This document shows, one piece after another, positions 15,376 through 35,818 of a stretch of 64,000 bases of DNA. The translations under genes and the position numbers were made by a program. Source of the stretch: a virus; the IMG/VR virus record IMGVR_UViG_3300034374_005671, positions 1 through 64,000 of that record; one strand, 5' to 3'. A model generated the notes under the pieces. It saw only the letters and a program-made list of their open reading frames with translations, was not told the DNA's origin and did no database searches. Position 1 is the stretch's first letter, and each line of letters starts with the position of its first letter.

Positions 15376-16285
15376 TATTACTGCTGGTAATTACTTCAAA
15401 GATAATCCACATCTTGTGGATGAAGCATCTATTGCTAGGTGGGTGTATATGAAGTTAAAGAACTTTGGCAGAAACATTATGGATAAGTACGAAAGAACTA
15501 TCCATATTTCTGATTATAGGGGAGAAGTACCTGAAAACTTTTCTTCTTTAGTTCTTGCAGTATTTTGTGAGCCTGACTTTGCATCTATACCTAAAGACTC
15601 CGACCTTTCTAGAGTACAGTCTCGAATCTATGGAGAGCAACTAAAATGTTTTGAAGATAGACTTTGCGAAGAATGTACCCCACAATGTAAGGAAGGAGAC
15701 TGCGTAGAAAGAATAGTTGAAAATCTTTATTTAGAAAATACAAAGATGTCTTTCTACTACAAGAATCCCGTTTATGTAAGATTAGGTAAAGACCTTATAA
15801 GAAGTCAGTGTGAGACTAACTGCATAAATAGAAGTGTAAAAGACAGTCCTTACTCTATAAACATAAAGGGTAAGACAGTGTACGCTAATTTCAAGAAAGG
15901 GACTATCTACCTACAGTACTACGGCATCCCGATGGATGACGACTGTCTACCAGTGATTCCTGTTACTAAGAATGGTTACCTAGAAGAATACTTAGAGTAC
16001 CACGTAAAAAGAAAAATACTTGAAGATGCTATGCTATCTGATGACAGCCCTAACAAACAGGGAATATACAAAGCATTCTTTGAGTTTGAAAGAGACTTAG
16101 AACCAAAAGCAAAAGCCGACACATCTAATATTGATATGGTTGCTCTATTTAGAGCAATGGGGACTAATAGATTCCGAATGCACAAGTATGATGTTAACTT
16201 AGGTTCAATCAAATCGAACTATGATGCTTCAGGACCTGCTGCTGGTTACGGTTCATTCCAAAATCCAAATCCATTTAGATTCTAA
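15332..16285 (+). CDS. Tail tubular protein (P22 gp4-like, crAss Ttub)
   Basis: YSINIKG...NFKKGTIYLQYYGIPMDDDCLPVIP motif; directly upstream of the muzzle gene. Confidence 0.65.
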   Translation: MEQNAYTPLEQFIADITAGNYFKDNPHLVDEASIARWVYMKLKNFGRNIMDKYERTIHISDYRGEVPENFSSLVLAVFCEPDFASIPKDSDLSRVQSRIYGEQLKCFEDRLCEECTPQCKEGDCVERIVENLYLENTKMSFYYKNPVYVRLGKDLIRSQCETNCINRSVKDSPYSINIKGKTVYANFKKGTIYLQYYGIPMDDDCLPVIPVTKNGYLEEYLEYHVKRKILEDAMLSDDSPNKQGIYKAFFEFERDLEPKAKADTSNIDMVALFRAMGTNRFRMHKYDVNLGSIKSNYDASGPAAGYGSFQNPNPFRF

Positions 16286-19200: not shown

Positions 19201-22200
19201 TCACTATCCGATATAGCAAACGGACCAAAGGCTAAAAACAAAAAAGATTGTTTGTGGTATCCTGCTTTTGTTAGAGTTTCCCTATATAAAAATTGTGATA
19301 TTGATTATACTGATGCGTTTGCCCATACCATACCTAATATAGACAACACTAATACTGTCTGGGAAAGATGTGGAGGATATACAGGTAACGACCCATTCAT
19401 AGACCAAAATTCTTTTTTGTATAGAATGGGCTCAAGAAGGGCTTCTGGTGGAAGAATACCTGATGGAGATATAAATAAAATAGTTATCCACTTAGCTGAT
19501 AACCCTACTATGTTTGATGGTGTAGACGAAATAATAGTCGCAGTGGACACACCTCTTGTTTCAGTCACTCATATGGGACGGAACAATAGGTCAGACTATG
19601 GTGGCGCAGGGTTAGGCTCTGCTGGTCTACAGGCTAATCATACAAAACAGTATTTTTATGCTTCAGGTACTTGGGGTACGTTAAATATAAAAGCTGATTA
19701 TCCTCCAATAGACAAGATAGAATTGATAAATGGGGGAGAACTTGCAATAAACCTAGAGAAAACTTGTGTATTTGAGACTAGATGCCCTTTTAAAGTGTAT
19801 GAAGACTTAGTTTGCAATCCTGTACCATTTGAATATGGTAACTTCTCATATTGGGAGTCTACCCTTAACTATCCAAACAATAATTTCTTGTATGATAGTC
19901 AAAGCGTGGTGATTACCGAGGCAGACATCCCACCTGATATCAGGACTGAGTTCCAAAACGTATTTACAAATGGTGCCCCTGCTGCAGGACAGCCTTACGT
20001 ATTATCAGATGCTGCTGACTTTAGTTGTAAGCCAATTAGGCACTTCAAGTTCCCTGACTTCAACACAGCACCTGCATTTGACCAAGATGCTATACCATTC
20101 AGAAAAAACAATATATTCCCTATTGGATTACACTTGGATAATGAAGTAATTGAGGCTTTCCTTGATATTGCTGTAAATAATAATTACATAAATCAAGAGT
20201 TTAGGGATTCTATAACTCACTACGAAATATTTAGAGGGGATACTAAATTTGATAGGTCTGTTATAGCCAAAGGGTTATTGTATGATATGTATCAGTATCC
20301 TGAGTATGAGTTTTCTACAGAAGACTCTAACACAGACAATAATGCTTGGTTTAGTAATTTCCCTTACAATGACCTTTCTAACAACAAGTTATTGTATCAA
20401 GACGAAGACAGAACTGAATACATCCCCCACCCTTTTAGGAATTCAAGAGCTGGGGCAGCTCGTAAATCTAACTACAAATATACTTTCCACTCTCCTGAGA
20501 CTAGCTTTGATAAGCCTATACTACCTTTTGAAATGTATGTGGAGTCTCACTTTACGGGGCAGAGTAGAGGGTCGTTTGTGGCTGTAAAGAATCACCCTGT
20601 CTTCACAGTACTATCACCAAGAGCACATAGGTTGGCCAAGATACTAGCGGCTACAGAAACGTCTTTTGAAGTTCTTGCATTGAGTACAGAACTTTTTATA
20701 CAGGTCCAACAAGCTTCAGGAGGTGTGATACCTATTGGTAAGGTAGCAGCTTGGATAGCTTGGGCCATACTTGCTGGTTCTGCTGTGGCGAGTTCTATAC
20801 CTGCAGGTAGACGAAGAAGAGTGGAGTGGGAAGAAATATTTTACAATAGAGGAGAGCGACATAACTTTGCTTACTATTATTCCTCAGTAGGATATTACAA
20901 TCAATTCTCTAGAGCAAACAACGATGAGTTCAATACTTATGGACTGGTGGGAGATAAGCTTAGAGGACTAAAAGAAAGACTGTATATTAAAGATGGTAGA
21001 TACAGAATAGACGAAGCATTTGACAGTCAACCTACTGTCATAAACAATACCTTTAGAGAGTCTTCTGTATTCTTAAGTCTAGGTTCCGAAGTAGAATCTA
21101 CTTTAGAACAAGATTCTAACTTTAACTACTCATTTAATTTAGAACCACCTGCCGCTATAAGAAATAGAGACAATAGTAGATATGCAGCTAGTGACCACAC
21201 TTGTGTAAATGTAGGGGATAGAACACCAGAAACTACTAGAAGTATTGCATCTCCTTATGTCTCATTAAAGCAGTTTATCCCAAATCAGCATGGAAACATA
21301 AATGATTTGAGATACATATACACTTCATACTGTGGCAAGTTGGGAACAGACAACTCTTGTGATATAGTTTATGGAGGAGATACATTCATCAATAGATTCT
21401 ACATAAAAAGAAAGTTCCCATTCTTCTTAGCACCTATGATAGATGGTAACAATTCTTTACCTGACCTCATACCTTTTAACTATCAAGACGTTAGAAATAT
21501 TGGGTATCCTAAGTATTACTTAAACTACCGAATGAGTGAGAGGGATGAAAGCACAAGTCTAGGTAGTATACCTAATATGGTGTCTGACTATGAGTTAGAT
21601 TGTTTCTCGAAAGGTAACAAATATATTGTTCCTCCGTCCAAGTTTTACTTGTACTATTACGGTATACCAGGATTTATGGTAGAGTCAGCCATGAACCTAG
21701 ATTTCCGATACGGAGAGAACGAAACAGACAAAGGATATTATCCTGCTCAGTCTGACTTCTATAACTGGACTCAAGAAAGTGTAGTACCTATTAGAGAAGA
21801 CAATCAATATTTCTACTGGAATGTATACTCTACTGAGAATGATAGAGTTGGATACAGGTACTTACCTGATAATTATGACCCAGCAGAGTTTAATTGTAGA
21901 TTTGACCATTATGATAGAACTATCTACTCATTGCCTGATACAAACGAGCAAGACCTCTTAGATAATTACAGAGTCTTTTTGGCTAATAACTTCTACGATT
22001 TCGGTAGCAAGTACGGACCTTTGAAAGCCCTGCATAGTATAGAGTCTGCTAAGGTTCTAGGTTTATTTGAGAATGGTGTGGTAGTATTTAATGCATACAG
22101 CACTATCCAAGCTACAACCGATGACTATTTGGTTGGTAATGCAGGTATATTTGCAAATAGACCCCAAGAGTACTTTAAATCAGACCTAGGGTACGGAGGA

Positions 22201-23373
22201 ACTCAACACACAGCGTTTGCCACTTGCCAGTACGGACATTTTTGGGTTGATGCCAAGAGAGGCAGAGTATACTCTGTTCAACCAGGAGGTGCAGGTATGC
22301 AAGAGATTTCTCAGAATGGCTTAGGTAATTGGTTTAGAGAAAATCTTCCATTTAGAATAAAGAAACAGTTCCCTAACATATCAGACAATATGATAGACAA
22401 TCCATATGAAGGATTAGGCATATCAATGGTATGGGATGATAGATACTCAAGATTATTCGTCACCAAGCTAGATGCCAAAGTAAAATCAGGTATCACTATA
22501 TACGATGGACCTAAAGAAACACTTCCATGTGTACCAGGAGGGTCTATCACAATTGACGTTAGATACGAAGATGATAAAGAAAAGTTAGATTTTTGGTATC
22601 TTTCTCCATCTCCGTTCTGCGAAGGACCGACTTTAGTACACCCACAAACTCATCCAAACATATTTGACTCTGCTTCTTGGACTGTATCGTATAGTCCTAT
22701 TACAAAGTCATGGGTGTCTTTCCACTCGTTCTTACCTAACTATTATGTAGCTCACAATAACTACTTCTCTTCAGGACTTAATTTCGGTTCTAATTCAGGT
22801 ATTTGGAATCACTTACTTGGTAGTAATCAAACGTTCCAAGTATACTACGGAACACTGTACCCTTGGATTATTGAGGTACCTGTGAAGCAGAACTACAACA
22901 CAAGAATGTACGAAGACTTCTCGTATCGACTTGATGTTAGGAGATACAGCAATGAGTATGATTATCACTATTTCCCTGAAAACTTTGATACAGCTGTATT
23001 CTACAATGACAGAGAATCTACAGGTTTGCTAAACCTTATAACTCAACAACAGAACAATCAACAACAATTGATTGAATTACCTAGATTTACTGGTAGTGGA
23101 GTTGATATATTAGCTACTAAATCAGACTATACTTGGTCAGTAAACTTCTTCCTAGATAACCTTAGAGAGAATCATACCTTACCAATATGGAATCATGCAG
23201 TAAACAATGTAGGTAAGAGCCTAAATGCAACAGCATTTAACTATCAACCTACATTCAAAAACCATATTAGAGGACAGTATCTCATTGCTAGGCTATCTCA
23301 GAATAATGAGTCCCGACTCAAGTATATCTTTGAACACTTCATTTCCGATTCACTACTTTACGATGCTTATTAA
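16285..23373 (+). CDS. Tail stabilisation/muzzle protein (P22 gp10-like, crAss Tstab)
   Basis: 2362 aa; GMNKD N-terminus, LYFTDDLNPRR, GYMRDEVVPFGI, GGDTFINRF, YGHFWVDAKRG, WTVSYS...WVSFHSF beta-propeller motifs. Confidence 0.75.
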   Translation: MKPQREVGVAKQGMNKDIHVTSLNENSYIHALNANFQGQDGDSVNLQNEESNILCSKFVEGFHVIGVQHDNTGERTYFFLTNPTTRESEIGYIADLENQISFTDTIQECDCDIKSLLSSGLESVAQVATCTYVTLIADHGTKPCQGSSEGAGCLGFNVNYPISSIIKQEKCGDVLYFTDDLNPRRRVEVAKPEQYNKKTVFCDDDTDPACDCGRKEVTVCFNCDKLNILPSSEKLCIDILGSVVGGKTRHGQYLFFAGYCDSQGNLVNNYVAASGACSINDENREVYQQFELDTLTNLSIKLKINNLDPSFDYYKVAVLQRNAVDGAENAFVVDILPTSTSELLYSGSQELQPIDARELVRELPDYLTAKTVTQANNQLFFSDLEARPDPNLQPVVNFMGQFAKWRTAISEEGLYKTTRGTGSFKGYMRDEVVPFGIRFVTNQGYKTPVYPLIPRVATDLGDKYFDSHHATHGATLIQAIANASSKKALELDLPAYGTNLATSPWINDVYSVLKNGNNGCANEERIYKWQFYNTATNLGPIPNANCSTADFTTVYKLVERICVTDRIGDNSIRINQANAPIVIDVDEDEYDYTTFFNFVNDRQEDIERAYLLGTPAEKAILAFLLKDSYKEGGLKEGEVVCCDPDTPESLFDEGCDLDDLSPSDEIVDFLSFDEINGATPELNEVPVKCQDISRPPTPDVDSFVETDSEGDPKNDNEDNAIKYGPDPDNPENETDEYEFWVADRKDTNKHDFVFKRTKSLFGKDSCDDAQFLATNYEGEGTYPYTFHISPLFPELDINTDNFSTSPDTPIPLDTNSPYHQIIQLVDNTLPAGFGGALDFISRTAEELPFRSLAAPGVIGTNPTQVPHNWFRKFPNQPFNAGNITFPIDVLTGEPLGDRIKKDNCYQKGDIFEGGFFTKNQSISWSGGSSGSFIGGALTSFTPFPALPNQGFLGRNAIFFKIKVDKTKPTLVISLSDIANGPKAKNKKDCLWYPAFVRVSLYKNCDIDYTDAFAHTIPNIDNTNTVWERCGGYTGNDPFIDQNSFLYRMGSRRASGGRIPDGDINKIVIHLADNPTMFDGVDEIIVAVDTPLVSVTHMGRNNRSDYGGAGLGSAGLQANHTKQYFYASGTWGTLNIKADYPPIDKIELINGGELAINLEKTCVFETRCPFKVYEDLVCNPVPFEYGNFSYWESTLNYPNNNFLYDSQSVVITEADIPPDIRTEFQNVFTNGAPAAGQPYVLSDAADFSCKPIRHFKFPDFNTAPAFDQDAIPFRKNNIFPIGLHLDNEVIEAFLDIAVNNNYINQEFRDSITHYEIFRGDTKFDRSVIAKGLLYDMYQYPEYEFSTEDSNTDNNAWFSNFPYNDLSNNKLLYQDEDRTEYIPHPFRNSRAGAARKSNYKYTFHSPETSFDKPILPFEMYVESHFTGQSRGSFVAVKNHPVFTVLSPRAHRLAKILAATETSFEVLALSTELFIQVQQASGGVIPIGKVAAWIAWAILAGSAVASSIPAGRRRRVEWEEIFYNRGERHNFAYYYSSVGYYNQFSRANNDEFNTYGLVGDKLRGLKERLYIKDGRYRIDEAFDSQPTVINNTFRESSVFLSLGSEVESTLEQDSNFNYSFNLEPPAAIRNRDNSRYAASDHTCVNVGDRTPETTRSIASPYVSLKQFIPNQHGNINDLRYIYTSYCGKLGTDNSCDIVYGGDTFINRFYIKRKFPFFLAPMIDGNNSLPDLIPFNYQDVRNIGYPKYYLNYRMSERDESTSLGSIPNMVSDYELDCFSKGNKYIVPPSKFYLYYYGIPGFMVESAMNLDFRYGENETDKGYYPAQSDFYNWTQESVVPIREDNQYFYWNVYSTENDRVGYRYLPDNYDPAEFNCRFDHYDRTIYSLPDTNEQDLLDNYRVFLANNFYDFGSKYGPLKALHSIESAKVLGLFENGVVVFNAYSTIQATTDDYLVGNAGIFANRPQEYFKSDLGYGGTQHTAFATCQYGHFWVDAKRGRVYSVQPGGAGMQEISQNGLGNWFRENLPFRIKKQFPNISDNMIDNPYEGLGISMVWDDRYSRLFVTKLDAKVKSGITIYDGPKETLPCVPGGSITIDVRYEDDKEKLDFWYLSPSPFCEGPTLVHPQTHPNIFDSASWTVSYSPITKSWVSFHSFLPNYYVAHNNYFSSGLNFGSNSGIWNHLLGSNQTFQVYYGTLYPWIIEVPVKQNYNTRMYEDFSYRLDVRRYSNEYDYHYFPENFDTAVFYNDRESTGLLNLITQQQNNQQQLIELPRFTGSGVDILATKSDYTWSVNFFLDNLRENHTLPIWNHAVNNVGKSLNATAFNYQPTFKNHIRGQYLIARLSQNNESRLKYIFEHFISDSLLYDAY

Positions 23374-23375
23374 TT

Positions 23376-26300
23376 ATGATTAGACTAGATTTAAATAAAA
23401 AGTTAACTAAGGCTGAAAACGGTACAGTTATACCTGTAGCTAGACATCAAAATTATTTTACAGTTGACCCATTTGGGGAAGGTCTAGATAGACCAAATAA
23501 TAATTTGTATGATGAGAGAAATAGGGGAGGAAGTAATGCATATTCTGCACCAACTTCAGGAGGGCAAGGGTTCTATGGAGAAGCTACTAGAAATAGAACA
23601 AATGCAGATGCAATAGTACAAAGCCAAATAGCACAAGAAACTCAAGCAAGAATTGACGAGGAAAAAGAAAGACAACAAGAGATAGACCGAAACACCCTGG
23701 CTCCATATAGTTACTATAGGAAGTATGATTTAGATAAAAAGCCTATTGCTGGTTATTCTCCTGGAACCCCAGGACACACATTTGCATTGTATGGAGAGGA
23801 TATAAAAAATTATCAGTACGGATTCGACAGTGCAGAAGATAACATTGCATTAGCGAATCAGTTAAGAGGCATATATACAGATTACACAGGCTCCGAAAGG
23901 CAAGAAAAATTAGATGCTCTTAGAGATGCACAGTATCAAAGATACCTTATGAATCCTGAACGTTTGGCGGCTATGGACCAAGATATAGCATATAATGAAG
24001 GTATACAGTCTAACGTAGATAGGGATTTTGGACCAGGTGTTGATAATGCTAGGGCTGATGTTAATAATTTTAGGTATCAAATGAGATGGGACCCTTTATT
24101 ATGGCAAGATAAAAAATTACCTCCTAAAAACATAAACTACAATAGTTTAAATTCACAAATACACACTACTCTTGGTACTTTGGGAATGGTTCCAGTATTT
24201 GGAGAACCTTTTAACTTGTTAGATGCAGGGTTATACCATCTTGAAGGAGATAATTTCAACAGAAATCTATCACTAGGCTCTATGATACCCTTTTTAGGAA
24301 ATGCTACAGGAGGTGCTCAATTGGCTAGAAAAGGATTTCAATATGGAAAAAATTTCTTTAGGAGGGGAGCATCTGCAGCTCCTACGATAGCGAGAGGAGC
24401 TACCAATATTCCTTCTCCTCAATTTAGAGGAGTAAATAGACAATTATTTCAATCGGATATAGATTATGGAAAATCATTAGGGCTAGACATTAATAATGTA
24501 GATGACTTAATGAAGAATTATAATTTAAGAAACAGAACATACAGAGCGATTGATGTAAATCCTAATACATTTAATGACCCAGGATTCAGACAAGCCGCAA
24601 CAAATGTAGGGGTTGATGTAGAGGACGTTGATGCACTTACAACATATATGGGCTCATCAGTTCCTTACAAAAGGATAGGCAATGTATACACAGAGGGTTT
24701 ATTGAAAAACACGGGAGATAGCAAATCATTTATGTTCACATCTCCAAACAAAGACTTTACTACAAATTACATTAGAAATGCAGATAATCCCTATGTTTTT
24801 AGGTACCCCATATTTAATGATGATGTTACTAACCTAACTAATACTGATATACTAAACAGAATACGTTATGGTACGAGAGATAATTTCAGTAATGTTGGAC
24901 AATTTGGACAAGAATTACCATATGAGTTTTTATTACGTAATCCAGATGCAGCAAAAAGTCTAGGTAAAGGACAAATAGTATCAATGCCACCTAGTGGTAA
25001 TAAACCTTTTGTACAGACAAACACCATACAGTTTGTAGGTAATAGAGGAGATGCAATAATAGACCCTAGTAAAGTTGAATTTATGTCACCTTCTAACCCT
25101 GCTTTTGTTGACTTCCAACAGGGAGGTACGGCAAGAAGACATCAAGATGCAGAACCTCTAACATTAGAGCAAAGGGCAGAAGCTATGGGCGAGAACCCAG
25201 AGTACGCTAGAAACGTACAAAAAATGCTTGATGAGGGGGCAACTATACAAGAGTTAGCCGCCAGAAGAGTAGGTACTGTAAGTGGTTTATCTAAGTTATT
25301 CCCTGATGCTGAAATGGGGACTGCGCCTGAACGAAGTTCAAGCAGAAGCACTAGTAGTTCTAGTAGTCGGGGAGGCGGGTCTGATGTAGAGTCCAGAGCA
25401 GCTGAATTTAATATGTCCCCCGAAAAGTTTGTTGGGTACTACAACAGGGGGGCAAGAATGATTAACGAAGGTAAGAGTATAGATGATTTAGTTAAAATGG
25501 GATATGGCACAAGAGGAGCCTTATCAAGAATGTTCCCAACTGCCCCTACTGAAACAGTTAAGGTGGAGGAAACACCAGAAAAATCTTCAAATCTTGATAA
25601 TTTATCTCAAGAAGAGATTAATGCTCTTTGGGTGCAAATGGGGAATGATATTAAAGATGCTCCAAAGGCAAAGAACCCTGAAGGTACCCGTATAATGAAA
25701 GATTTTCAACCAATAGGATTTCTTGATTACACTCCCCCTCCTCCAACAGTAAATGAAGATTTAGATATACTTAATTCTGCTGCTTCTTTTTCTTCGCAAT
25801 CATTAGACGAAATAAGTACTCCCGACATTTTTAAAGAGAAAAAAGAAGTACAACCGCCTGGTAGCGGGACAGTTCTGCCTGGAAGAAGAAATATCTTTAC
25901 AGGGGAGTATGTAAGACCCGCAGAAGGTAAAGATATTTTTGAAGCTACAGGAGAATTTTTTAATAGAAATATTGTAGAACCTATTGAGGGTTTTGTAGAT
26001 AAAAACATCATACAACCTTTCGAAGAAAAGTTTATTGAACCTATACAAGAGGAAATTGAATTTGCACAAGGAACTTTTAGCCCAGAAGTACAAAAAGATT
26101 TAGCGGCTCTTGAGTCTAGTGAAAATCAACAAAAAATAGCAATGGAGATTCTTCTGAATCCCGACCTCACTATACAAGATGCGTTGAGGGATAGTGGTTT
26201 TACTCATGCAGCTCAGGCTATGGATGATGTAGAATACCTAGAAGAAAATTATGGAGATTGGTATGATTGGTATTTAGACCAAGGTACTACGGCTAAAGCA

Positions 26301-26768
26301 CTTAAGAATATAGGAGAATTTGTATCAGGACAGGACCTTGACGTTCCTCAAGAAGCCCAGGAAGGCATTTCTGCAGGCAGAGAATTTTCTAGAATGAAGG
26401 ACTTTACTGGTATAGAGTTCTTGTCTGACCCTTGGGTTGCAGACAATTACGGTGACCAAATATTTGAATCAGTTATGGGTTACAAACCAGAAGAGGGAGA
26501 ATATGAAGAAGCCCTTCCAATGATACAGGATTTAATAGAAATCCAACAGTTGATGGCTGAACAGGGTTTTGATATTAGTGAAATATTCCAACAAGGAGGT
26601 AAAATAAAACTAGACCTTGAAAAAAAATTAGGAGTAGATATAGACAAGCTAGACCCTTTACCAATAGGTACATCCTACAAATCCCGTAGGTTTTTCCAAG
26701 AAAATCCTCTTGCAGCCATAGCATATGGTAAAAATCCTTTTAGAAAAGCAGGCTCTCCACCAAGATAA
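23376..26768 (+). CDS. Modular putative cargo protein containing a pre-toxin-TG-like segment and a candidate toxin domain
   Basis: 1130 aa; LGMVPVFGEPFNLLDAGLYHLEGD...SLGSMIPFLG; FQQGG x2; internal repeats. Confidence 0.55.
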   Translation: MIRLDLNKKLTKAENGTVIPVARHQNYFTVDPFGEGLDRPNNNLYDERNRGGSNAYSAPTSGGQGFYGEATRNRTNADAIVQSQIAQETQARIDEEKERQQEIDRNTLAPYSYYRKYDLDKKPIAGYSPGTPGHTFALYGEDIKNYQYGFDSAEDNIALANQLRGIYTDYTGSERQEKLDALRDAQYQRYLMNPERLAAMDQDIAYNEGIQSNVDRDFGPGVDNARADVNNFRYQMRWDPLLWQDKKLPPKNINYNSLNSQIHTTLGTLGMVPVFGEPFNLLDAGLYHLEGDNFNRNLSLGSMIPFLGNATGGAQLARKGFQYGKNFFRRGASAAPTIARGATNIPSPQFRGVNRQLFQSDIDYGKSLGLDINNVDDLMKNYNLRNRTYRAIDVNPNTFNDPGFRQAATNVGVDVEDVDALTTYMGSSVPYKRIGNVYTEGLLKNTGDSKSFMFTSPNKDFTTNYIRNADNPYVFRYPIFNDDVTNLTNTDILNRIRYGTRDNFSNVGQFGQELPYEFLLRNPDAAKSLGKGQIVSMPPSGNKPFVQTNTIQFVGNRGDAIIDPSKVEFMSPSNPAFVDFQQGGTARRHQDAEPLTLEQRAEAMGENPEYARNVQKMLDEGATIQELAARRVGTVSGLSKLFPDAEMGTAPERSSSRSTSSSSSRGGGSDVESRAAEFNMSPEKFVGYYNRGARMINEGKSIDDLVKMGYGTRGALSRMFPTAPTETVKVEETPEKSSNLDNLSQEEINALWVQMGNDIKDAPKAKNPEGTRIMKDFQPIGFLDYTPPPPTVNEDLDILNSAASFSSQSLDEISTPDIFKEKKEVQPPGSGTVLPGRRNIFTGEYVRPAEGKDIFEATGEFFNRNIVEPIEGFVDKNIIQPFEEKFIEPIQEEIEFAQGTFSPEVQKDLAALESSENQQKIAMEILLNPDLTIQDALRDSGFTHAAQAMDDVEYLEENYGDWYDWYLDQGTTAKALKNIGEFVSGQDLDVPQEAQEGISAGREFSRMKDFTGIEFLSDPWVADNYGDQIFESVMGYKPEEGEYEEALPMIQDLIEIQQLMAEQGFDISEIFQQGGKIKLDLEKKLGVDIDKLDPLPIGTSYKSRRFFQENPLAAIAYGKNPFRKAGSPPR

Positions 26769-26791
26769 TTTACGTCATAATTTGTAAATTA

Positions 26792-26823
26792 TTTGGTTAT
26801 ATCAAATATGTTTTTTATATTCG
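26792..26823 (+). promoter_or_regulatory. Bacteroidota primary-sigma-type promoter
   Basis: TTTG-N20-TATATTCG; shares ATTTGGTTATATCA with the 14132 site. Confidence 0.6.
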
Positions 26824-26843
26824 TATTTATTCTCTAAATCAAT

Positions 26844-29333
26844 ATGTACAGGAACTTTACTAATAAAAGAAAATTTCAAGATGCTAACTCTATTGGCGCA
26901 GAGGGGACTGTGCAGAATATACCTATTGCTGATGTTAACTTCGATGATAATTACATAGAGCAATTAGAAAGCACTTTACCTCAAGATAATATTGATTTAA
27001 AGTTTGAAGACCTTTCTTTTTCTGCACAACAAGACCCTTACATGCGGCAATACTATGGTATCACGGAAGGTACAACATATAATCCTCCGTCAGGCATGCA
27101 ACCTGCAGGTCCTCCTCAAGCTTCAACACCAGACATGAAGCCTGTAACATTAGGACAAAAAGTTAGGAATAACACGATAAATAGGCTACAAAAAAGGTTA
27201 TCTAATATTGAAGAAGGCAGAGAGAATAAAATAGCTAAGGCTGTAGATTTATTAGGTTTAGGAAATATAGGCACAGCAGGCGGGTATATGCAAGCTTTTA
27301 CTGATTTACCCGAAAGAGCTTTCGCTAGAGCAGGGTACAATATGGAGCAAGGACCTAGAGGTAAAGCTAGAGCACTAGGAAACATAATAGAGGCCAGTAC
27401 AGGGTTGGGAGGAGCTTTTTTGCAAGGGCTTGGTTCTTTTAAAAAGACAAAACCCATGACAGAAGAAGAGTACATCGCAGCTAAAAAAGCAGAGCAAGCC
27501 AAGAAAAACAATACTGTCATGATTGGCGATACCCGCTACACCTTAGTAGAAGATAGCGAGGGTAGAATGACAATTGGACCTGAATACCAAGAAACCGAAA
27601 CTATGAAAATGGGGGGACGAATGGGCCCTAAAGTTATTAAGAATCAAGATTTCTATACAAGACTAGATGAGGCAACTAAAGGAGTGAATCAGTCAGGGAC
27701 TAGGAACACAGCTACACGTTCTGGAGTTGGAGAGCAATATAGCCTTGACCTGTCTACTGTTTTTCAAAGCCCTCAAGATTTGGTGGATTATTATGGCATG
27801 AGCAGTCTTACAAGTGACCCTAAATCTACTTACTATGTTAACCCAGAAAGGGCAAAAAGAATGTATGAATTAGTCACAGGGTCAGGTAAAATAAACCCTG
27901 CTGAACTTCACATGATTATGCAGGCTAGAGGATTAGATTCAGAAGGTTATGAAAATTTAACCAATGCCCAAGTGATGGATGCTATTAATAAGGTTAATGA
28001 GCATATGCCTGGAACATATCAGGCTGGGCCTCAAGGAGGGTTTAGCGGTGAACAAAATTTAGCTGCTGTTCAAACTGCTTTAGACCATTACGGGGGCGTA
28101 AGAAGAGCTTATGGAGTACCTTTTACCCCAGGCCAAACAGCTGAAGAAAGATTTAGCGAACTGTATTATGAAGATTATATGGCTAGTAATCCCAATACAC
28201 CTGAAGGTAATATTGTCAAGTTAGACGGAGGAATGGGAGGTGTTATGCGCTTACAGAATGCCAGCCCTACTATGTTTAATCCTTTTGCAATTCAAACACC
28301 AAGCATCCAACCTTTCACAATGGAACAAGTAGATGCTGATTTTGCAAATGTACCAGAGCCTTCACCATTCATGACTGATTTTGATATGGATGGTATTTCT
28401 GATTATATAGATATTGATGCAGGTGAAGGTACCAATCAAGCTTTACCAGGAGTATTAGGAGGACCATCGATTGCTACCCCCACACCTACAGACTTTTCCT
28501 ACTCTGATGCAAGTAGCCCTGTAGACATGACTACTGATTCCGATGGGGATGGTATTCCTGATTATCAAGATGATTTTGATAATTCTATAGTGTCTGAAGA
28601 GGAAAGACAGAAAGACATAGCCAAAAAACAAAATTCTCTGTTTGGCATGGCAGCATCTTTAGGTTCTGCGGTAGGCTCCGATGATTTAACTTCTCGAGCA
28701 GCTCGTGCAGGTCTAATGGCAGGCCGCTTACTACAAGGAGAAAGCCCTTTAGCATCAACCATAGGGTTGGGAGCAGGGTTAGGTTCGGTTGGATTTGGAG
28801 CTGCAAGGACAATGAAAGGAGCTAGGGCAGAAGCTATCGCCACTGCAGATGCAAGAAAAAGAGCTGCAGAAAGATTAAGACAAGGGATTATGACAGGGGG
28901 TACAAAAGGCAGAGACGTAGCATCCCTAGAATCATATCTACAAAGTTCTACCTACGACCCTATGGCAACAGAGTTTGGCCAAGATGGTATGATGATGGGG
29001 GGTAATAAAGGAGGAATGGCACAAGGTGGCAACCAAGGTACTCCTCCTCCCAAAGGAGTTGTGATTGGACGAAATACTGCCAAGTACTTCCAAAAACCAC
29101 AACTACCTGTTTCACCTAACGGTTTGGTAGAATATCCTAATCAAATGGTTAATGTACCTACAACAGGTACTATAACTATGAATGAAGAAAAAGCAGGTGG
29201 ACCACTACCTGAGTATGTTTTAGCTGTGCCTAACGGAGATACACCAGTCATAATGCAAAATGGTTACGACTATGATTTCCCTAATAGTGACATGGTAACA
29301 GAGATACCCTTAAATCAAGCATTGTATGTCTAA
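26844..29333 (+). CDS. Modular putative cargo protein with Gly/Ala hydrophobic helices and TSP3-like Ca-binding motifs
   Basis: 829 aa; DFDMDGISD and DSDGDGIPD; xxGG motifs. Confidence 0.55.
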   Translation: MYRNFTNKRKFQDANSIGAEGTVQNIPIADVNFDDNYIEQLESTLPQDNIDLKFEDLSFSAQQDPYMRQYYGITEGTTYNPPSGMQPAGPPQASTPDMKPVTLGQKVRNNTINRLQKRLSNIEEGRENKIAKAVDLLGLGNIGTAGGYMQAFTDLPERAFARAGYNMEQGPRGKARALGNIIEASTGLGGAFLQGLGSFKKTKPMTEEEYIAAKKAEQAKKNNTVMIGDTRYTLVEDSEGRMTIGPEYQETETMKMGGRMGPKVIKNQDFYTRLDEATKGVNQSGTRNTATRSGVGEQYSLDLSTVFQSPQDLVDYYGMSSLTSDPKSTYYVNPERAKRMYELVTGSGKINPAELHMIMQARGLDSEGYENLTNAQVMDAINKVNEHMPGTYQAGPQGGFSGEQNLAAVQTALDHYGGVRRAYGVPFTPGQTAEERFSELYYEDYMASNPNTPEGNIVKLDGGMGGVMRLQNASPTMFNPFAIQTPSIQPFTMEQVDADFANVPEPSPFMTDFDMDGISDYIDIDAGEGTNQALPGVLGGPSIATPTPTDFSYSDASSPVDMTTDSDGDGIPDYQDDFDNSIVSEEERQKDIAKKQNSLFGMAASLGSAVGSDDLTSRAARAGLMAGRLLQGESPLASTIGLGAGLGSVGFGAARTMKGARAEAIATADARKRAAERLRQGIMTGGTKGRDVASLESYLQSSTYDPMATEFGQDGMMMGGNKGGMAQGGNQGTPPPKGVVIGRNTAKYFQKPQLPVSPNGLVEYPNQMVNVPTTGTITMNEEKAGGPLPEYVLAVPNGDTPVIMQNGYDYDFPNSDMVTEIPLNQALYV

Positions 29334-32300
29334 AAGTATCTTTGACAGAAACCCTTTAACTGAAATGTTCTCTTCTATAGAAGAAGCAATGAGATGTGCT
29401 GATTCTATGGAGTTAAAGAATATGTTAAGAAACTCATTTAAAAATATAACAACAGACCCTATATTAGGTAAACCGAATAAATCTAAACAATCAATGTCAA
29501 TCACAATAATTGCAGGTGATGACCTTAATAAATTAAATAATATAAACACACTGGAAAACGGAGGAAAAATGAAAAAGTTTAAATACACAGGTAGATATGC
29601 TGATGGTGGTAAAAATTTGAAGCCAATCCCAGCAGACAACAAAGGACTTCAGGCTCTTGCCAAGAAGAATCCTAAGTTAGTTATGGACATGGGATTCAAT
29701 CCTAACAGCGTAGCAGCTAAAACTAAAGGTAAAAAGAAAGGACCTAAAGTTTCTAAGAATCAAGATGTTGAAAGAGTACCTGAGACTGCACGTATAGGTG
29801 ATGACATGAGTAGCATGAACGCTCTTAAAAGACTTTATTATGATTATCTAGCTGGAGAGGGAGCTCAAACTGATAGAGTAATACAGGCTGGAAGGATATT
29901 CCCGTTTGGTCAAATTTTTCAAGCTGCTGAGGGTATAACAGATATAATATATCCTTTTCTGACTGATGAGAGTCAAGCAAAGGAGGACAAACGTAGAGCC
30001 ATCCAGCAAGAAGCTACTGAAGACTTAGAAGAATACAAACAATATTTAAAAGACAAGGGACTATACAAAACACCTTTTGAAACTGTAAAAGGCTTTTTCG
30101 GTTTTCAAAACGGAGGAATGGGACCTAAAGTTCCTAAGAATCAAGGTGGAAGATTAGTTGTACCAGGATTTACTGGTGGTATGATTGACCCAACCACAGG
30201 AGAAAGAGTACCTATGCTTGAGGATTATGTCAGAAAAGGTATGCAGTATTTCATGGGAGATACTACAGCTAACCCACCTAAGTTTCAAAATGCAGACCCC
30301 ACTATCGTACCTTCTGTTACAAACTTAGATGAGACAGTTGTAACTGCTTATCCAAATGAAGGAGAGATGGGAGTACTCAACACCACAATTTATACGCCAC
30401 AAAATGTCTCTAAGAAACAGCTGAGACAGATGAATAGAAATAATGCAGCTCAGGCTATGATGTCAGGAGAGCCTCTTTCTTACGCAGAACTTGCAGCTAT
30501 GTACGGACCGAGAAAAGCTTCTAGAATCATTGCATCGGGAGCAGGTGCTTCAAATTTCAATCAAAATATAAGCGGTGTATCTAGTGCAAATGCAGACGTA
30601 GGGGATGTAACCTCAACTTCAGAAGTAGGAAATGTAAGTTCATCTTCAGTTTCAGATTCTTCAGGAAACGCTATGGACATGCAAGGTGCTAACATTGGTT
30701 CAGGCGTAATGGACAACTCGCAGATGGTAACTAACCAAAACGGTGGAAGAATGACTCCTAACCTTGGAGGATACCCTGACATCCCTTACTTATTTGGATA
30801 TCAGATAGGAGGAATGGTACCTGGTTATCAGAATGCTGCCCCATCCATCAGAAATTTCCCAAGTAGTATTGAAGGATTTCCTAATTTTCAAATGCCTGTA
30901 GCTGGCTCTCCTTCCGAAGGAGGTACCACTGAATTTATGAATTCAGACCAAAGTGTAATGTATAATGAGCGAGCGTGGGTAGAAATGCTTCAGAATCTAG
31001 GTGTTGATGCTGAACAACTATTAGCAGGAGGTGGAGCAAATTTACCTGCATTTTTAGATAAAATGGCTCCTCAATTAAGAAACCAAGTAACTGGTATACT
31101 AGAGGGCGCAGGCATTTCAGTTCCTCAGAGTAATGCACAACTAATTTCAGGCTTTAAGAATTTGCTACAGGAGAACCCTCAAATATTATCTGAGCTTAAA
31201 AAATTAGAGAATATAAGCATGGAGGATGTTATGAATTTGGGTACTGAAGCTCTAGGGGAGCAGGGTATGCAAGGATTATTAGGCATAATCAACAATCCAT
31301 TCTTTAAAAAACTTGAAGGACAAGCACTACAATTTGGACAAGCTATGCAAGGCTCAAAAGAAGTGCAAGATTTACTTGGTCTAATAAATAAGGCTCGAGA
31401 TGTGTATGACGAGGTAAGTTCACAGCCCTCTACTGCTCCAACAACTGGTGGTAGTGCGCCTGCTGCAGGTGATGAAAGCACAGCTGAGGTTGCTACTGCA
31501 GAAGACAATAAAGATAGGTCAAACTATCCTTATAAAGTATTTAAGAATGTTGGTCTTGACATAAAAGACTTCCAAAAAGGTCAATATTCTGACCGTTCTG
31601 CTGATAGCAATAGAGAACTTAGAAGACTTTTACAAGAACATTTAGCTGCAGGAGGCTCACCTGAAACATTTAGTGTCAGACAGACAGCTGAAACTGCTGA
31701 TATTGAAGAGGCTAAAAGGAAATTAATGGAGAACATTACTACAGTTCCAGTTGAATTCGAGGACATTGTGCCTGAAGATGAACTAGAGAAAGTCAGCCTG
31801 AGCGAAGAACAAACGGTCCCAACGTCTCGTAGACAAAATAGACGAGCCAATAGACTTGAGAAGCTTGAAGGCAGACTGGAAAGAACTCAACAAAGAACGG
31901 CAGATAGACAAGCTAGAAGAGACGACAGGCAGCAAAGAAGAGCAGATAATCAGGCGGTTAGAAGCAATCAAATGCAGCAAATAAAAGACCTTAGAGAGCA
32001 AATCCGAGCTGCTAGAGGTAATGCTATGGACGGTATGAGATATTTCCCACCTACCATAGGAGGTAATATTCCTAACGGAGGACAGATGGCACCTGCATTC
32101 AACTTTGCTCAAGACGGCATACTTACTGGTATGCGACCAAATATGATGGCACCACCTTCATATCAAAAAGGAGGCATAATGAATGTACAACCAATGCCTT
32201 ATGACCCTACCTCTCAAGATAGCACTATGCTTGGTGGAGGTACTGCTCCTATGTTCCAAGATGGCACCGATTATCTTAGGAATCTACGTGTACCAGGATA

Positions 32301-32577
32301 TACTGGGGGCATGATTAATCCAATGACAGGAGCAATCATTAGAACTCCCCAAGATATGATTAATCAGGGATTAAACTACTTTGTACCTGATTCTACTAGG
32401 GTATCACCACCTCGAAATCAAGATGGCCAAATGATGAGAGGAATTGCACCAAGTAATGAGCCTTACCACTTAGAGAAATTAGGGATTGCACCAGTGGGTG
32501 GACCATCTTTGAGACCAACTCCACTAGGCCAAATGATGAGACCTATGCCTCTTAATAGAATTCAAAGATTACGCTAA
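29326..32577 (+). CDS. Modular low-complexity putative cargo protein, densest in QxGG motifs
   Basis: 1083 aa, Met/Gly/Gln/Pro-rich; internal duplication VPG[FY]TGGMI[DN]P. Confidence 0.55.
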   Translation: MSKSIFDRNPLTEMFSSIEEAMRCADSMELKNMLRNSFKNITTDPILGKPNKSKQSMSITIIAGDDLNKLNNINTLENGGKMKKFKYTGRYADGGKNLKPIPADNKGLQALAKKNPKLVMDMGFNPNSVAAKTKGKKKGPKVSKNQDVERVPETARIGDDMSSMNALKRLYYDYLAGEGAQTDRVIQAGRIFPFGQIFQAAEGITDIIYPFLTDESQAKEDKRRAIQQEATEDLEEYKQYLKDKGLYKTPFETVKGFFGFQNGGMGPKVPKNQGGRLVVPGFTGGMIDPTTGERVPMLEDYVRKGMQYFMGDTTANPPKFQNADPTIVPSVTNLDETVVTAYPNEGEMGVLNTTIYTPQNVSKKQLRQMNRNNAAQAMMSGEPLSYAELAAMYGPRKASRIIASGAGASNFNQNISGVSSANADVGDVTSTSEVGNVSSSSVSDSSGNAMDMQGANIGSGVMDNSQMVTNQNGGRMTPNLGGYPDIPYLFGYQIGGMVPGYQNAAPSIRNFPSSIEGFPNFQMPVAGSPSEGGTTEFMNSDQSVMYNERAWVEMLQNLGVDAEQLLAGGGANLPAFLDKMAPQLRNQVTGILEGAGISVPQSNAQLISGFKNLLQENPQILSELKKLENISMEDVMNLGTEALGEQGMQGLLGIINNPFFKKLEGQALQFGQAMQGSKEVQDLLGLINKARDVYDEVSSQPSTAPTTGGSAPAAGDESTAEVATAEDNKDRSNYPYKVFKNVGLDIKDFQKGQYSDRSADSNRELRRLLQEHLAAGGSPETFSVRQTAETADIEEAKRKLMENITTVPVEFEDIVPEDELEKVSLSEEQTVPTSRRQNRRANRLEKLEGRLERTQQRTADRQARRDDRQQRRADNQAVRSNQMQQIKDLREQIRAARGNAMDGMRYFPPTIGGNIPNGGQMAPAFNFAQDGILTGMRPNMMAPPSYQKGGIMNVQPMPYDPTSQDSTMLGGGTAPMFQDGTDYLRNLRVPGYTGGMINPMTGAIIRTPQDMINQGLNYFVPDSTRVSPPRNQDGQMMRGIAPSNEPYHLEKLGIAPVGGPSLRPTPLGQMMRPMPLNRIQRLR

Positions 32578-32596
32578 TATATCTCAATACTAAAGT

Positions 32597-35500
32597 ATGA
32601 ATTTTTATAATCTTGACTTACTTTCTAATTACCAAGATGGCGGTAATACTAAGATAGAAGAACAGGTATCAGGTAGATACGTGAAGGGTGTTGCAAAACC
32701 TGAACAGCATGATGTTAATGCTGAGGTTGAGAAAAATGAATTTATACAGTATCCTGATAGAGAGATATCCCAAGTAGACCCAAAAGGTAAATCACACGCT
32801 CAAGGGGGAGAATTTATGAATCTTCCCCCTGAAACTAAAATTTTATCCGATAATATTAAGATTGGTAAAGAATTACGTGATAGATTAGAGGATATGTTTG
32901 GCGTAACTCTAAAAACATCTGATACTATTGCTAAGGCAATGGAGAAAGTAAGGAAGAGTATAGGAATGGAATCCATCCTTGTTCGAATGGAACAATACCT
33001 TAAAAAGATAAAAGAAAATAATAAGGTAAAAGACAAGGACACTAAAAGAGTCAATGAGGAATACTTAGCTAATAAAATCTACGAACTAGAACAAGAGCGA
33101 AATCAAAAGAAAGAACTTGAGAATCAAGTCTTTGAGATGTTGTTTAATGTTCAAGAGACTAGAAAGCAAGCTGAACAAATGGGTGACCCGAATCATCAGA
33201 ATATCAGAAAACGTCCCCCAATAGACCAGCCTACTGAGCAAGAGATGTCTGATTATGAGCAGATGAAGGAGGCAAAACAACCTAAAAATTTGGCTAGACC
33301 AGGACAGCAAGGACCTGAGACTATGCAGGTGATGGCTGAAAATGGTGGAAGACTCATAGAGGTTTTCTTCGATGGGGGGTCTCCTTACGTGGGCAATATG
33401 AATGATATGCAAGCCTTAGAGGTTCAAGCTATGCAAGATGGTTATGATAATCTTGATGAGTTTATTTTTGGTGTTTATTCTGACGGAGGAGGTATACCAC
33501 AAAGGTATAGAAGCAAAGGATTCACCAAAGTAGGTGTAAAGAAAAGAGCACCTTCTGGAGCTAAACACAAATGGGAAGTCCTTGCACGTAAAAAAGTAGG
33601 AGGCAAAACAAGATATAAAATTGTTAAAGGTGGCTTCCGTGGGATGAAAGATTTTAAATCTCACAAAGACCCTAAGAGAAAGAAAAGATTTTGGGACAGA
33701 ATGGGGGGTAAAAACTCTCCCAAAGCAAAAGACCCATTTTCTCCTTTGTATTGGCACAAACGTTTTGGTACTTGGGAAGAAGGAGGAGTGCTAGGATATC
33801 AAAATGCTGGTGAAACAGCATCCGCATTTGCTGCAAGAATGGGTCAGGCTTGGCCTAAAGGTGTAAAAGACCCAGTATACAATGCCGATACTAAAATGTG
33901 GGAATTTGCTGATGGTACACCAGCTATTAGTAGGGGGGATGCTATGAATTTAGCAAGAGATATTAATCGAACAGGTGAGGTACCAGATGCCTATAAAGTA
34001 GCTGAAAATATAAGAAACCAGGGGGGAGTAGCATCCACACCAATTACTCCTAGTGAAGAGCAAACAGCAGCTAACCAGAACGGACCAGTTACTCAATATA
34101 ATCCAGAACCTGTAGATATAGGAGGTGTACCTCACTATGAAGTAATAGTAGATGGTAAACCTTATTTGCTTGAAGCAGGCAAAGTTTCTACCATTCAAAC
34201 AGATGATGGCTCAATATTCCGAGTAGATATGGGAGATGTAGAATCTCAAGATTTTAGTGTGGACACTAGGCAAGAAGCAGGATATAGAACAGGTTACTCA
34301 TCAAGAGGCGATGTAAAAGGTTATAGAGGGGCTGATAAGGCCGCTATTGATGCTCAAATAGCAGAACTAGAATCCGATTTAGCTCCTTTCTTGCAAGCTA
34401 TCGAAGACGGCACAGTACAAGCTGACCCTGAAACAGGCAAGTTTAATTTACCTCTTACTATTAGAGGGGGTAGCTCATCCAGACCTATGGCACTGGGGCA
34501 AACTAAGAGCCAACTTCAGTCTAGTTTTGAAAACTTAATACAATACAATCCTGAATTAGAAGGCCAAGTTGGTTTTATCCAGCCTGATGGTTCAATAGAC
34601 CCTAACAAACAGACTGGACAGGTAGCATTACCTGCAGGATTTCATAATGTATTTGGAGATGAGTTTGACCCAGGAACCATAGAAACTTTCGATTTAGATG
34701 AATTAAGTAGGGGAGGGAAAGAAGGTGAAGAAGCTCTATCTAATATTGGTAATGATGCATTAGCGTACAATAGAAACAGAACCGAGTATGAAGAGGTTCT
34801 CCTTCCTTTCCTAGAACAAAAAGGCTATGATATAGACCAATTTAATGTCTCTAACGAAATGCTACCATACAGAACTGCTGAAGAAACAGCAGCTGACTTA
34901 GGAATAGATTACGAAAAAGTACAAGCAGGAGATTTCTCTGAATTATCAGAGAGATTAGGCAGAGAGATAACCTCGGTAGAACAAGCTAAGGAATTCTTAC
35001 TTGATGCTGCTCAGTTCTCAGGGATTGGAGGGGCTTCTGAAGGAGAATTAACTTCTTTGGTATCTGAAGTAACTCCAGATGACGGAGGGATACCACCTCC
35101 TATAATTCAAGATGACCCTGTTATGGGAGGTCCTATGCTATTATCTACTCCTAGAAGACTAGGCCCTGACCCAATGATGGTTGGACCTTTCATTATGCCT
35201 GAGTACGACAGAGTATCAGCTATGAAGGTATCTCCTCAAGCGGGTTATCAAGCTAATACTAAGCAGGTTAAAGCGGGTATGGACCTATTAACTCAATCAG
35301 TTGGTTCTCAAGCGGGTGCAAATGTTGCTAATCTTTTAGGACAGTCTGCAGAAGGTATTAACCAATTGACAGCTAATACTAATCAACAAAATGCTCAATT
35401 GAAGCAACAAGCTGACCAGATGAATGCTCAAATACAGCAGGCAGAAGCTGCAGCAAGAGCACAGGCATTAGCTACCTTTGGTACAGAATCAATGACAGCA

Positions 35501-35818
35501 TACGCTAATACTTTAGCAGACAGAAGGGCTTACTTAAATATATTGGAAGAAGATAGATTAGCAAGGGATGCAGAAAGAAGACAGCTACAAATTCTTGATG
35601 CAATATACCCTCAATATACATTTGATATGTTTGGAAATGTACTTTACGACCCTTCAAGAGCAGGAGATTTCTACGTACCAGAAACTGCTTTAGCTCAACA
35701 AATATATAACCAAGGAACAGGGACAAGCGGAAGCACTGAGGCAGTAGATGAGAATTTTGATACTAGAACTATTGACGGTATCACATATCTAAGAGCACCT
35801 GATTCGTATCAGAGTTAA
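32597..35818 (+). CDS. crAss-like cargo/structural protein (NAEVE...G.SH..GG N-terminal domain)
   Basis: 1073 aa; NAEVEKNE...GKSHAQGG...ILSD motif, coiled coil, embedded basic domain, Gln/Ala-rich C-terminus. Confidence 0.6.
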   Translation: MNFYNLDLLSNYQDGGNTKIEEQVSGRYVKGVAKPEQHDVNAEVEKNEFIQYPDREISQVDPKGKSHAQGGEFMNLPPETKILSDNIKIGKELRDRLEDMFGVTLKTSDTIAKAMEKVRKSIGMESILVRMEQYLKKIKENNKVKDKDTKRVNEEYLANKIYELEQERNQKKELENQVFEMLFNVQETRKQAEQMGDPNHQNIRKRPPIDQPTEQEMSDYEQMKEAKQPKNLARPGQQGPETMQVMAENGGRLIEVFFDGGSPYVGNMNDMQALEVQAMQDGYDNLDEFIFGVYSDGGGIPQRYRSKGFTKVGVKKRAPSGAKHKWEVLARKKVGGKTRYKIVKGGFRGMKDFKSHKDPKRKKRFWDRMGGKNSPKAKDPFSPLYWHKRFGTWEEGGVLGYQNAGETASAFAARMGQAWPKGVKDPVYNADTKMWEFADGTPAISRGDAMNLARDINRTGEVPDAYKVAENIRNQGGVASTPITPSEEQTAANQNGPVTQYNPEPVDIGGVPHYEVIVDGKPYLLEAGKVSTIQTDDGSIFRVDMGDVESQDFSVDTRQEAGYRTGYSSRGDVKGYRGADKAAIDAQIAELESDLAPFLQAIEDGTVQADPETGKFNLPLTIRGGSSSRPMALGQTKSQLQSSFENLIQYNPELEGQVGFIQPDGSIDPNKQTGQVALPAGFHNVFGDEFDPGTIETFDLDELSRGGKEGEEALSNIGNDALAYNRNRTEYEEVLLPFLEQKGYDIDQFNVSNEMLPYRTAEETAADLGIDYEKVQAGDFSELSERLGREITSVEQAKEFLLDAAQFSGIGGASEGELTSLVSEVTPDDGGIPPPIIQDDPVMGGPMLLSTPRRLGPDPMMVGPFIMPEYDRVSAMKVSPQAGYQANTKQVKAGMDLLTQSVGSQAGANVANLLGQSAEGINQLTANTNQQNAQLKQQADQMNAQIQQAEAAARAQALATFGTESMTAYANTLADRRAYLNILEEDRLARDAERRQLQILDAIYPQYTFDMFGNVLYDPSRAGDFYVPETALAQQIYNQGTGTSGSTEAVDENFDTRTIDGITYLRAPDSYQS

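Follow-up and report, generated by a model that had tools for sequence, protein, structure and literature searches.

Why should four consecutive genes of a crAss-like phage be punctuated, between segments that are otherwise unrelated, by the same short di-glycine peptide? The question is raised by a 64,000-nucleotide (nt) stretch of DNA, hereafter the window, from IMG/VR record IMGVR_UViG_3300034374_005671, an 83,369 bp contig rated 54% complete by CheckV; the window is the virion-gene half of this crAss-like phage contig. Directly after a muzzle-type gatekeeper gene, and like it and the two small frames below on the plus strand, stand four cargo open reading frames (ORFs), namely ORF A (23376–26768; 1130 amino acids, aa), ORF B (26844–29333; 829 aa), ORF C (29326–32577; 1083 aa), the most motif-rich of the cargo ORFs, and ORF D (32597–35818; 1073 aa). 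Two small basic reading frames at the start of the window complete the set of six in which the motif was counted, one at 340–654 (104 aa) and the other at 1–330, open at the 5' contig end and containing ORF 16–330. A preliminary description of this DNA had seen in the motif a code for polyprotein processing or capsid loading. The motif is here tightened to a bulky-x-x-Gly-Gly core that marks module borders and several N-termini, and it is read, with a confidence just short of even, as a peptide that stays uncut and serves as a junction or a dock when cargo is loaded into the virion and ejected; the code for capsid loading, as first suggested, is a plausible alternative.

Definition and Enrichment of the Motif

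Every motif instance and all five dyads reported in the preliminary description were recovered from the ORFs to which they had been assigned. Their excess over chance stands for a tightened core, while the loose xQxGG list is only modestly enriched (GG 62 vs. 40 expected, 1.5-fold). The real signal is the core [F/Y/W/M]-x-x-G-G, often [FY]-Q-x-G-G, with [FY]-Q-[DN]-A as a conserved allelic form. In the six ORFs, [FYWM]..GG occurs 16 times against 4.6 in whole-protein shuffles and 5.2–5.8 when shuffling is confined to 40- or 20-residue windows, a count reached by none of 1500 shuffles; likewise, [FYW]Q.GG is found 7 times for 0.2 expected and [FYW]Q.[GA][GASN] 11 times for 1.0. Of the dyad GG-x(2-7)-Q[DN][AG] there are 7 occurrences vs. 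0.32 expected; they are spread over 5 sites, with every one of ORFs A–D having at least one. That the motif is sporadic at most outside the cargo genes is borne out by the 34 other window proteins (16,540 aa in total, the muzzle, tail, giant and replication proteins among them), with 11 [FYWM]..GG for 9–11 expected, 1 [FYW]Q.GG for 0.3 and 1 dyad for 0.33. The muzzle-type gene itself (16285–23373; 2362 aa; phrog_37948, E 3e-302) shows no excess.

The patterns were tuned on the same data, which makes exact p-values optimistic, and because they were refined on the window, independent sets weigh more. In 102 distant proteins that have only a module of about 100 residues in common with ORF D, [FYW]Q.GG occurs 134 times for 5 expected and [FYW]..GG 550 times for 88. 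In the 90 kb of Cellulophaga phage phi4:1, gp040 is the sole ORF with [FYW][QKE].GG, in four copies, and in the gut crassvirus Rudgehvirus jaberico the motif is present only in gene49, the first gene past the muzzle (6 copies vs. 0.29 expected). In Bacteroides phage crAss001, gp45 has FDTGG at residue 17, FAEGG at 260 and FAYGG at 559, i.e. 3 copies for 1.3 expected, which alone is not significant. The motif thus marks the first cargo protein of these cultured phages, weakly so in crAss001. As to what is under selection, the glycine codons within the motif match the background usage of these genes, which points to the peptide rather than to a DNA signal; a DNA-level recombination signal was discarded on the same ground. 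In the 102 distant proteins, the residues following GG are poorly conserved. A 3C-like site, with a cut after [FY]Q, was also considered and rejected, the Q position being only 17% Q in the wider family.

Position of the Motif within the Cargo Proteins

Near N-termini, where the preliminary description had placed it, the motif is indeed found within the first 7–24 residues of four proteins. In ORF 340–654, YQQGG starts at residue 7 (residues 7–11, nt 358–372), in ORF B the variant FQDAN starts at residue 11 (11–15, nt 26874–26888), and in ORF D a leader precedes YQDGG at residue 12 (12–16, nt 32630–32644). The fourth, ORF 16–330, had been put forward as a motif carrier and turns out to contain only the variant YQDGS, at residue 20 (nt 73–87), after an RSPFS element. 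Nearly all of ten homologues of ORF B keep its leader variant K-[FY]-Q-x-A-[GND], and distant relatives begin with MEY-MKDGG, MGWLKK-YQQGG or MKKWLDK-YAEGG, i.e. with leaders of 3–7 residues. At the opposite end, many distant relatives have an acidic conserved tail of about 22 residues straight after the last [FY]-[KR]-[QE]-G-G.

Two further terminal elements were observed. ORF 340–654, which also has AKDGG at residues 69–73 and YKDGG at 88–92 (nt 601–615), ends in ...GGRSPFS, and the frame at 1–330 has ...KRSPFS-NYQDGS; since the RSPFS element is in both, the two small basic ORFs have a repeat unit in common, and the frame at 1–330 may represent the end of a longer protein. Besides, cargo proteins and their homologues often start with M-x-[FY]-[RK/N]-[RN] (MNFYN, MNYRR, MYRNF; in relatives MFRRK, MTFRRL), which may be a second terminal signature of cargo proteins.

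Internally, the motif was said to sit at the borders of unrelated segments, and in ORF D low-confidence linkers and homology breakpoints do coincide with motif sites. In the AlphaFold model of ORF D, built on a 24-sequence alignment (mean predicted confidence, pLDDT, 65.5), the stretches with pLDDT <50 include residues 1–18, 294–299 and 391–403, which are the sites of YQDGG, of YSDGG (294–298, nt 33476–33490) and of the dyad WEEGG-VLG-YQNAG (393–405, nt 33773–33811). The same model removes AENGG and FFDGG of ORF D from the list of seams, as they form beta-turns within a small sheet. BLAST alignments of ORFs B, C and D with their homologues have 88 unique internal end points, 19 of which are no more than 10 residues away from a motif, where 9% would be expected (p~3e-4), and for ORF D alone 147 of 220 raw end points do so. 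In alignments, the YQDGG at the N-terminus of ORF D pairs with FEEGG/YEEGG inside P0010–14, at a junction where another small basic module comes first, as well as with YQNGG 324 of phi4:1 gp040 (29% identity).

A clean instance of gain or loss between motif copies, which the preliminary description had proposed to look for in related genomes, comes from ORF B, in which MKMGG (residues 254–258, nt 27603–27617) is followed by a cassette of about 203 residues and then by the dyad KLDGG-MGGVM-RLQNA (459–473, nt 28218–28262). In a relative 98% identical to ORF B (P0143), the sequence runs ...MQMGG-VMRLQNA and the cassette is absent; it lies exactly between the motif copies, and both of its junctions carry ATGGGNGGN. 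A further site of ORF B, MMMGG..MAQGG, is at residues 716–729 (nt 28989–29030).

ORF C behaves similarly with regard to four relatives (P0121, P0122, P0132, P0139), in which its motifs hold position. These are YADGG (residues 91–95), FQNGG-MGPKVP-KNQGG (260–275, nt 30103–30150), KFQNA (319–323), the dyad YQIGG-MVPG-YQNAA (492–505, nt 30799–30840), YQKGG (946–950, nt 32161–32175) and MLGGG..MFQDG (968–980). Directly past the dyad at 492–505, ORF C, P0121, P0122 and P0123 diverge, and P0123 is without residues 149–477 of ORF C. Two copies of a mini-cassette of about 45 residues, starting with VPG[FY]TGGMI[DN]P (nt 30160–30300 and 32290–32430), adjoin seam half-sites, and neither is present in P0122. 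A second recurring element, GPKVxKNQ, was noticed in ORF B (nt 27618–27641) and twice in ORF C (nt 29761–29790 and 30121–30144); it follows or replaces a seam and marks the start of the large deletion in P0123. In ORF A, the sites are the dyad FQQGG-TAR-RHQDA (residues 580–592, nt 25113–25151) and FQQGG (1071–1075, nt 26586–26600). Linkers, breakpoints and cassette gain or loss together bear out the view of these ORFs as modular proteins of virion-cargo type with the motif between modules.

Nature of the Modules

The most conserved module of ORF D, residues 17–200 (phrog_36695), reaches a pLDDT of 80 when folded alone, and its only full-length superposition is on 7QOG chain M, the portal-bound domain of crAss001 gp45. 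Aligned with VIA-align, model residues 18–199 and chain M residues 425–552 give Z 5.7 with a root-mean-square deviation of 3.1 over 99/126 residues; the Foldseek E value is 0.8, and hhalign gives a weak match (E 0.07 over 31 columns). The corresponding Pfam family, PF25725 crAss_CARG1, does not match ORF D at E up to 0.1 and scores crAss001 gp45 at 222 bits. Structural comparison suggests that the N-terminal domain of ORF D is related to the gp45 portal-binding domain, which is likely but unproven. A protease active site formed by the near-invariant E43, E45, E48, H67, E72, S84 and D85 of this domain was considered and set aside, the best superposition being on the non-enzymatic gp45 domain. 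For the whole ORF D model, Foldseek returned nothing at E up to 0.001, and a sequence profile search of the PDB gave low-complexity matches only.

A second module of ORF D, residues 299–392 (nt 33491–33772), is basic and DUF5754-like (E 0.0015). It is common to more than 100 otherwise different large phage proteins, at 60–68% identity, and is always flanked by Y-x-D-G-G and W-E-[ED]-G-G. Its conservation was seen to be far above that of its neighbours, and some of the proteins that contain it also bear L,D-transpeptidase, LysM or tail-lysozyme domains. In ORF A, a globular region before the first seam (residues 255–585, nt 24138–25130) gives a weak ART-PolyVal lead, with an Atlas language-model score of 0.87 and no supporting profile match.

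Genomic Context

The window starts just past the expected position of the major capsid gene, and portal, terminase and capsid genes are absent from the 83-kb contig. Downstream of ORFs A–D follow three giant ORFs of 1183, 3352 and 2182 aa. This order is the same as in phi4:1, where the muzzle-like gp042 is followed by gp041, gp040, gp039 and giant proteins, all of them virion proteins by tandem mass spectrometry (MS/MS) according to the GenBank annotation, and in crAss001, where the muzzle gp44 is followed by the cargo proteins gp45 and gp46 and then by gp47, gp49 and gp50 (PMC10172136). Because of this shared order, ORFs A–D are regarded as positional equivalents of the crassvirus cargo proteins; they occupy the block of cargo protein 1, with the muzzle gene on one side and the genes of the virion RNA polymerase on the other, and are most likely packed into the particle and injected. 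Database searches added little: the cargo and giant ORFs had hardly any matches among PHROG and Pfam profiles, the phage collection held no near-identical DNA, and IMG/VR held no locus related to ORF B.

In the head module upstream, the conserved ORF 690–1601 (phrog_30348) is without known family, and its counterpart in phi4:1, gp063, lacks a virion-protein annotation; for the window ORF, a role as scaffold or assembly enzyme is conceivable. As a protease candidate, it yielded only unnamed viral clusters in an Atlas search.

Is the Motif a Cleavage Site?

The first alternative to an uncut peptide is that the cargo ORFs are polyproteins or propeptide carriers, cut at or after GG by a host protease or by a phage enzyme not recognised as such, whose gene may lie in the half of the genome that is missing, with small basic modules and effectors freed in the head or after injection. 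Several observations would fit such a site: the copies located 7–24 residues from four N-termini here, and 3–7 in distant relatives; the conserved short acidic tail past the last GG in many of these relatives; the exposed and disordered state of the motif sites; and the existence in Pfam of small basic modules such as DUF5754 as free-standing viral families. The specific proposal of adenain/Ulp1-type di-glycine processing finds no support in the sequence itself, where the bulky residue stands at -3 from the first glycine instead of -2; the (M/I/L)xGG pattern accordingly off by one position is not enriched ([MIL].GG, 7 vs. 6.0 expected), and conservation past GG is poor.

The enzyme was also sought. 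The preliminary description had identified no protease, and this still holds: the Pfam models Peptidase_C5, C48 and C39 have no match at E up to 1 over the 54%-complete contig or in complete phi4:1, crAss001 and Rudgehvirus (C57 was not searched). A search for S78, the prohead protease of HK97 type, found none in the contig or in phi4:1, S77 not having been searched and the head-gene region upstream of the window being missing. Related phages do package Zn-metallopeptidase-like motifs, HExxH being present in crAss001 gp47, in the Rudgehvirus 'ZnMc_tr' protein and twice in phi4:1 gp041, all cargo genes, which is a further point in favour of processing. Against it, neither HExxH nor HxxEH occurs in any window protein or in the 83-kb contig, the complete cargo block included, and since the motif-rich phage studied here is without HExxH, a general role as the processing enzyme is ruled out for the zincin that other crassviruses package.

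Direct evidence of cleavage was found in none of the datasets examined. In crAss001, gp45 is modelled as one chain bridging tail and capsid, and the structure paper contains 0 occurrences of cleav-, proteol- or protease (PMC10172136). Of the gp45 copies, the one at 260 comes after the tail-bound helix (214–245) and the one at 559 after the portal-bound domain (425–552), as would suit junctions within one chain; conversely, a copy placed between the tail-located and the capsid-located parts is what a processing site could look like; gp45 peptides were detected on both sides of residue 260, which does not settle cutting (PMC10172136). The published peak lists of a crAss001 virion gel (PMC6235969 supplement), obtained by matrix-assisted laser desorption/ionisation, were re-read by peptide-mass fingerprinting. 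Band 3 is gp47 plus gp50 (47 and 50 peaks vs. 12–15 for shuffled decoys), gp49 and gp44 account for band 4, and gp45 was undetected in bands 1–10, the three smallest bands (11–13) being outside the data, a result with no bearing on cutting. In the same gel, bands 1 and 2 (>300 kDa) match gp44, gp34 and gp40 together, which suggests a tail sub-assembly resistant to sodium dodecyl sulphate. Processing at the motif is considered unlikely.

Passive Hinge, Recombination Seam or Chance?

The motif could also be a tolerated flexible joint, without partner and uncut, which persists through illegitimate recombination at short repeats. The microhomology ATGGGNGGN flanking the ORF B cassette indel would fit this, many indels end at seams, and GG pairs lie in low-confidence linkers. 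What such a joint does not account for is the conservation of the aromatic/Met and Q/K/E positions across families otherwise unrelated in sequence, down to 29% identity, when the codons of the motif vary freely, nor the retention of the motif at the very start of proteins, where a joint would have no use. The passive hinge is judged unlikely as well.

That there is no feature at all, i.e. that the pattern arose by chance, from composition or from mere paralogy of disordered proteins rich in G and Q, could draw on the heterogeneity of the loose list, with plain GG enriched only 1.5-fold, on the ordinary beta-turns AENGG and FFDGG and on the short homologous stretch GPKVxKNQ common to ORFs B and C, and is very improbable because distant homologues, phi4:1, Rudgehvirus and local-window shuffles all repeat the excess, the motif flanking unrelated modules and recurring in independent phages in the cargo gene only.

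A Proposed Junction or Docking Peptide

The preferred reading, that of an uncut junction or docking peptide, would work as follows. ORFs A–D, and probably the small basic ORFs too, would be internal cargo or ejection proteins of a phi4:1-type crAss-like phage, built as strings of exchangeable modules, whose borders and several N-termini carry the short linear motif in a disordered stretch; tandem copies would be the meeting point of two modules. The two glycines may insulate adjacent modules, allowing each of them to fold, unfold and thread through portal and tail separately, and the conserved bulky and polar residues may bind to a site that recurs in the particle, be it in the portal, the capsid interior or the scaffold, while the cargo is being loaded or ejected. 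It is further proposed that cassettes could be inserted or lost at seams without harm because every module ends in the same peptide.

This reading is supported by an enrichment that is confined to the cargo ORFs and survives local-composition shuffles, by the gain or loss of a 203-residue cassette between motif copies at 98% background identity, and by the position of the motif kept at 29% identity in phi4:1 gp040, an MS/MS virion protein per GenBank. The motif after leaders of 3–7 residues in distant relatives, superfluous for a passive linker, argues in the same direction, as does the failure to find di-glycine protease families in the contig or in three complete relatives. Weighing on the other side, any binding partner is hypothetical, the portal and major capsid genes being off the 54%-complete contig; the short leader ending in GG and the acidic tail of about 22 residues after the last GG resemble propeptides; the unbroken gp45 chain of crAss001 is an assumption; and with half of the genome unseen, a new protease or a host protease is possible. 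Enrichment, positions, conservation, cassette gain and loss and protein-level selection are observations, beside which we infer the docking function and the absence of cleavage.

A broader and more doubtful proposal is that bulky-x-x-Gly-Gly serves crassvirus cargo in general as a code for address or maturation, read by a pocket of the portal, capsid or scaffold, or by an unrecognised protease, in order to load, order and release modules. Were it true, any motif-flanked protein would enter crAss-like virions and be injected, and the code would explain the presence of gp45 parts on both sides of the crAss001 portal.

Comparison with Known Systems

ORFs A–D belong with the crassvirus cargo proteins and, more loosely, with the polyvalent proteins. 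Like cargo protein 1 (C1, gp45; PF25725 crAss_CARG1) of crAss001 (Bayfield et al., 2023; PMC10172136), they are encoded in a gene block straight after the muzzle gene; gp45 is mostly disordered, with parts bound to portal and tail (PMC10172136), itself bears motif copies at 17, 260 and 559, and is the protein on whose portal-bound domain (7qog_M) the ORF D model superposes. The difference lies in the one such motif-bearing ORF of crAss001 vs. four motif-rich ORFs here. The closest cultured relative of ORF D is phi4:1 gp040 (Lightbulbvirus; PHROG 36695, 'virion structural protein'), with 29% identity over about 200 residues and four [FY]Q.GG copies, one of them aligned with the YQDGG of ORF D, though phi4:1 has this single motif-bearing protein. 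The first phi4:1 gene after the muzzle, gp041 (16819–19038), encodes a Phage_lysozyme2 domain (E 5e-32) and two HExxH motifs, whereas its positional counterpart, ORF A, has neither.

Polyvalent proteins (Iyer, Burroughs, Anand, de Souza and Aravind, 2017; PMC5512222) are multi-domain, co-delivered with DNA and made of shuffled effector modules. The modular build of ORFs A–D would agree with this, and the domain leads obtained here, ART-PolyVal-like in ORF A and DUF5754-like in ORF D, are weak. Unlike the cargo ORFs of this contig, from which HExxH is absent, they are typically processed by an MPTase zincin domain. A junction motif is described neither in that paper, where 'linker' and 'glycine' have 0 occurrences, nor in the crAss001 structure paper, which does not mention the motif (PMC10172136), and a literature search found no published description of it.

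With the substrates of adenain from adenovirus, pS273R from African swine fever virus and I7 from poxviruses, the cargo ORFs have in common Gly-Gly near termini and between parts of basic virion-internal proteins, and they differ from them by a bulky residue one position further from GG and by the absence of C5, C48 or C39 matches, C57 (I7) not having been searched. The T4 capsid-targeting sequence and the cargo-loading peptides of encapsulins, which are short, stand at a terminus and bring cargo into a shell of HK97 fold, provide the working analogy for docking. They have no sequence relation to the motif, which is also internal and repeated; besides, gp21 cuts off the T4 tag at LxE. Binding of the present motif to shell or portal is putative.

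Concluding Remarks

Crassviruses are the most abundant human-gut phages, and marine relatives are common. A cargo-specific peptide at module borders provides a handle on how these viruses choose, pack and eject several megadaltons of protein; it predicts where neo-termini or contacts should be sought in existing cryo-EM maps and proteomes, and it accounts for the way in which new effector cassettes are added. If the motif is truly a loading tag, it could be used to have these phages bring proteins of choice into laboratory hosts.

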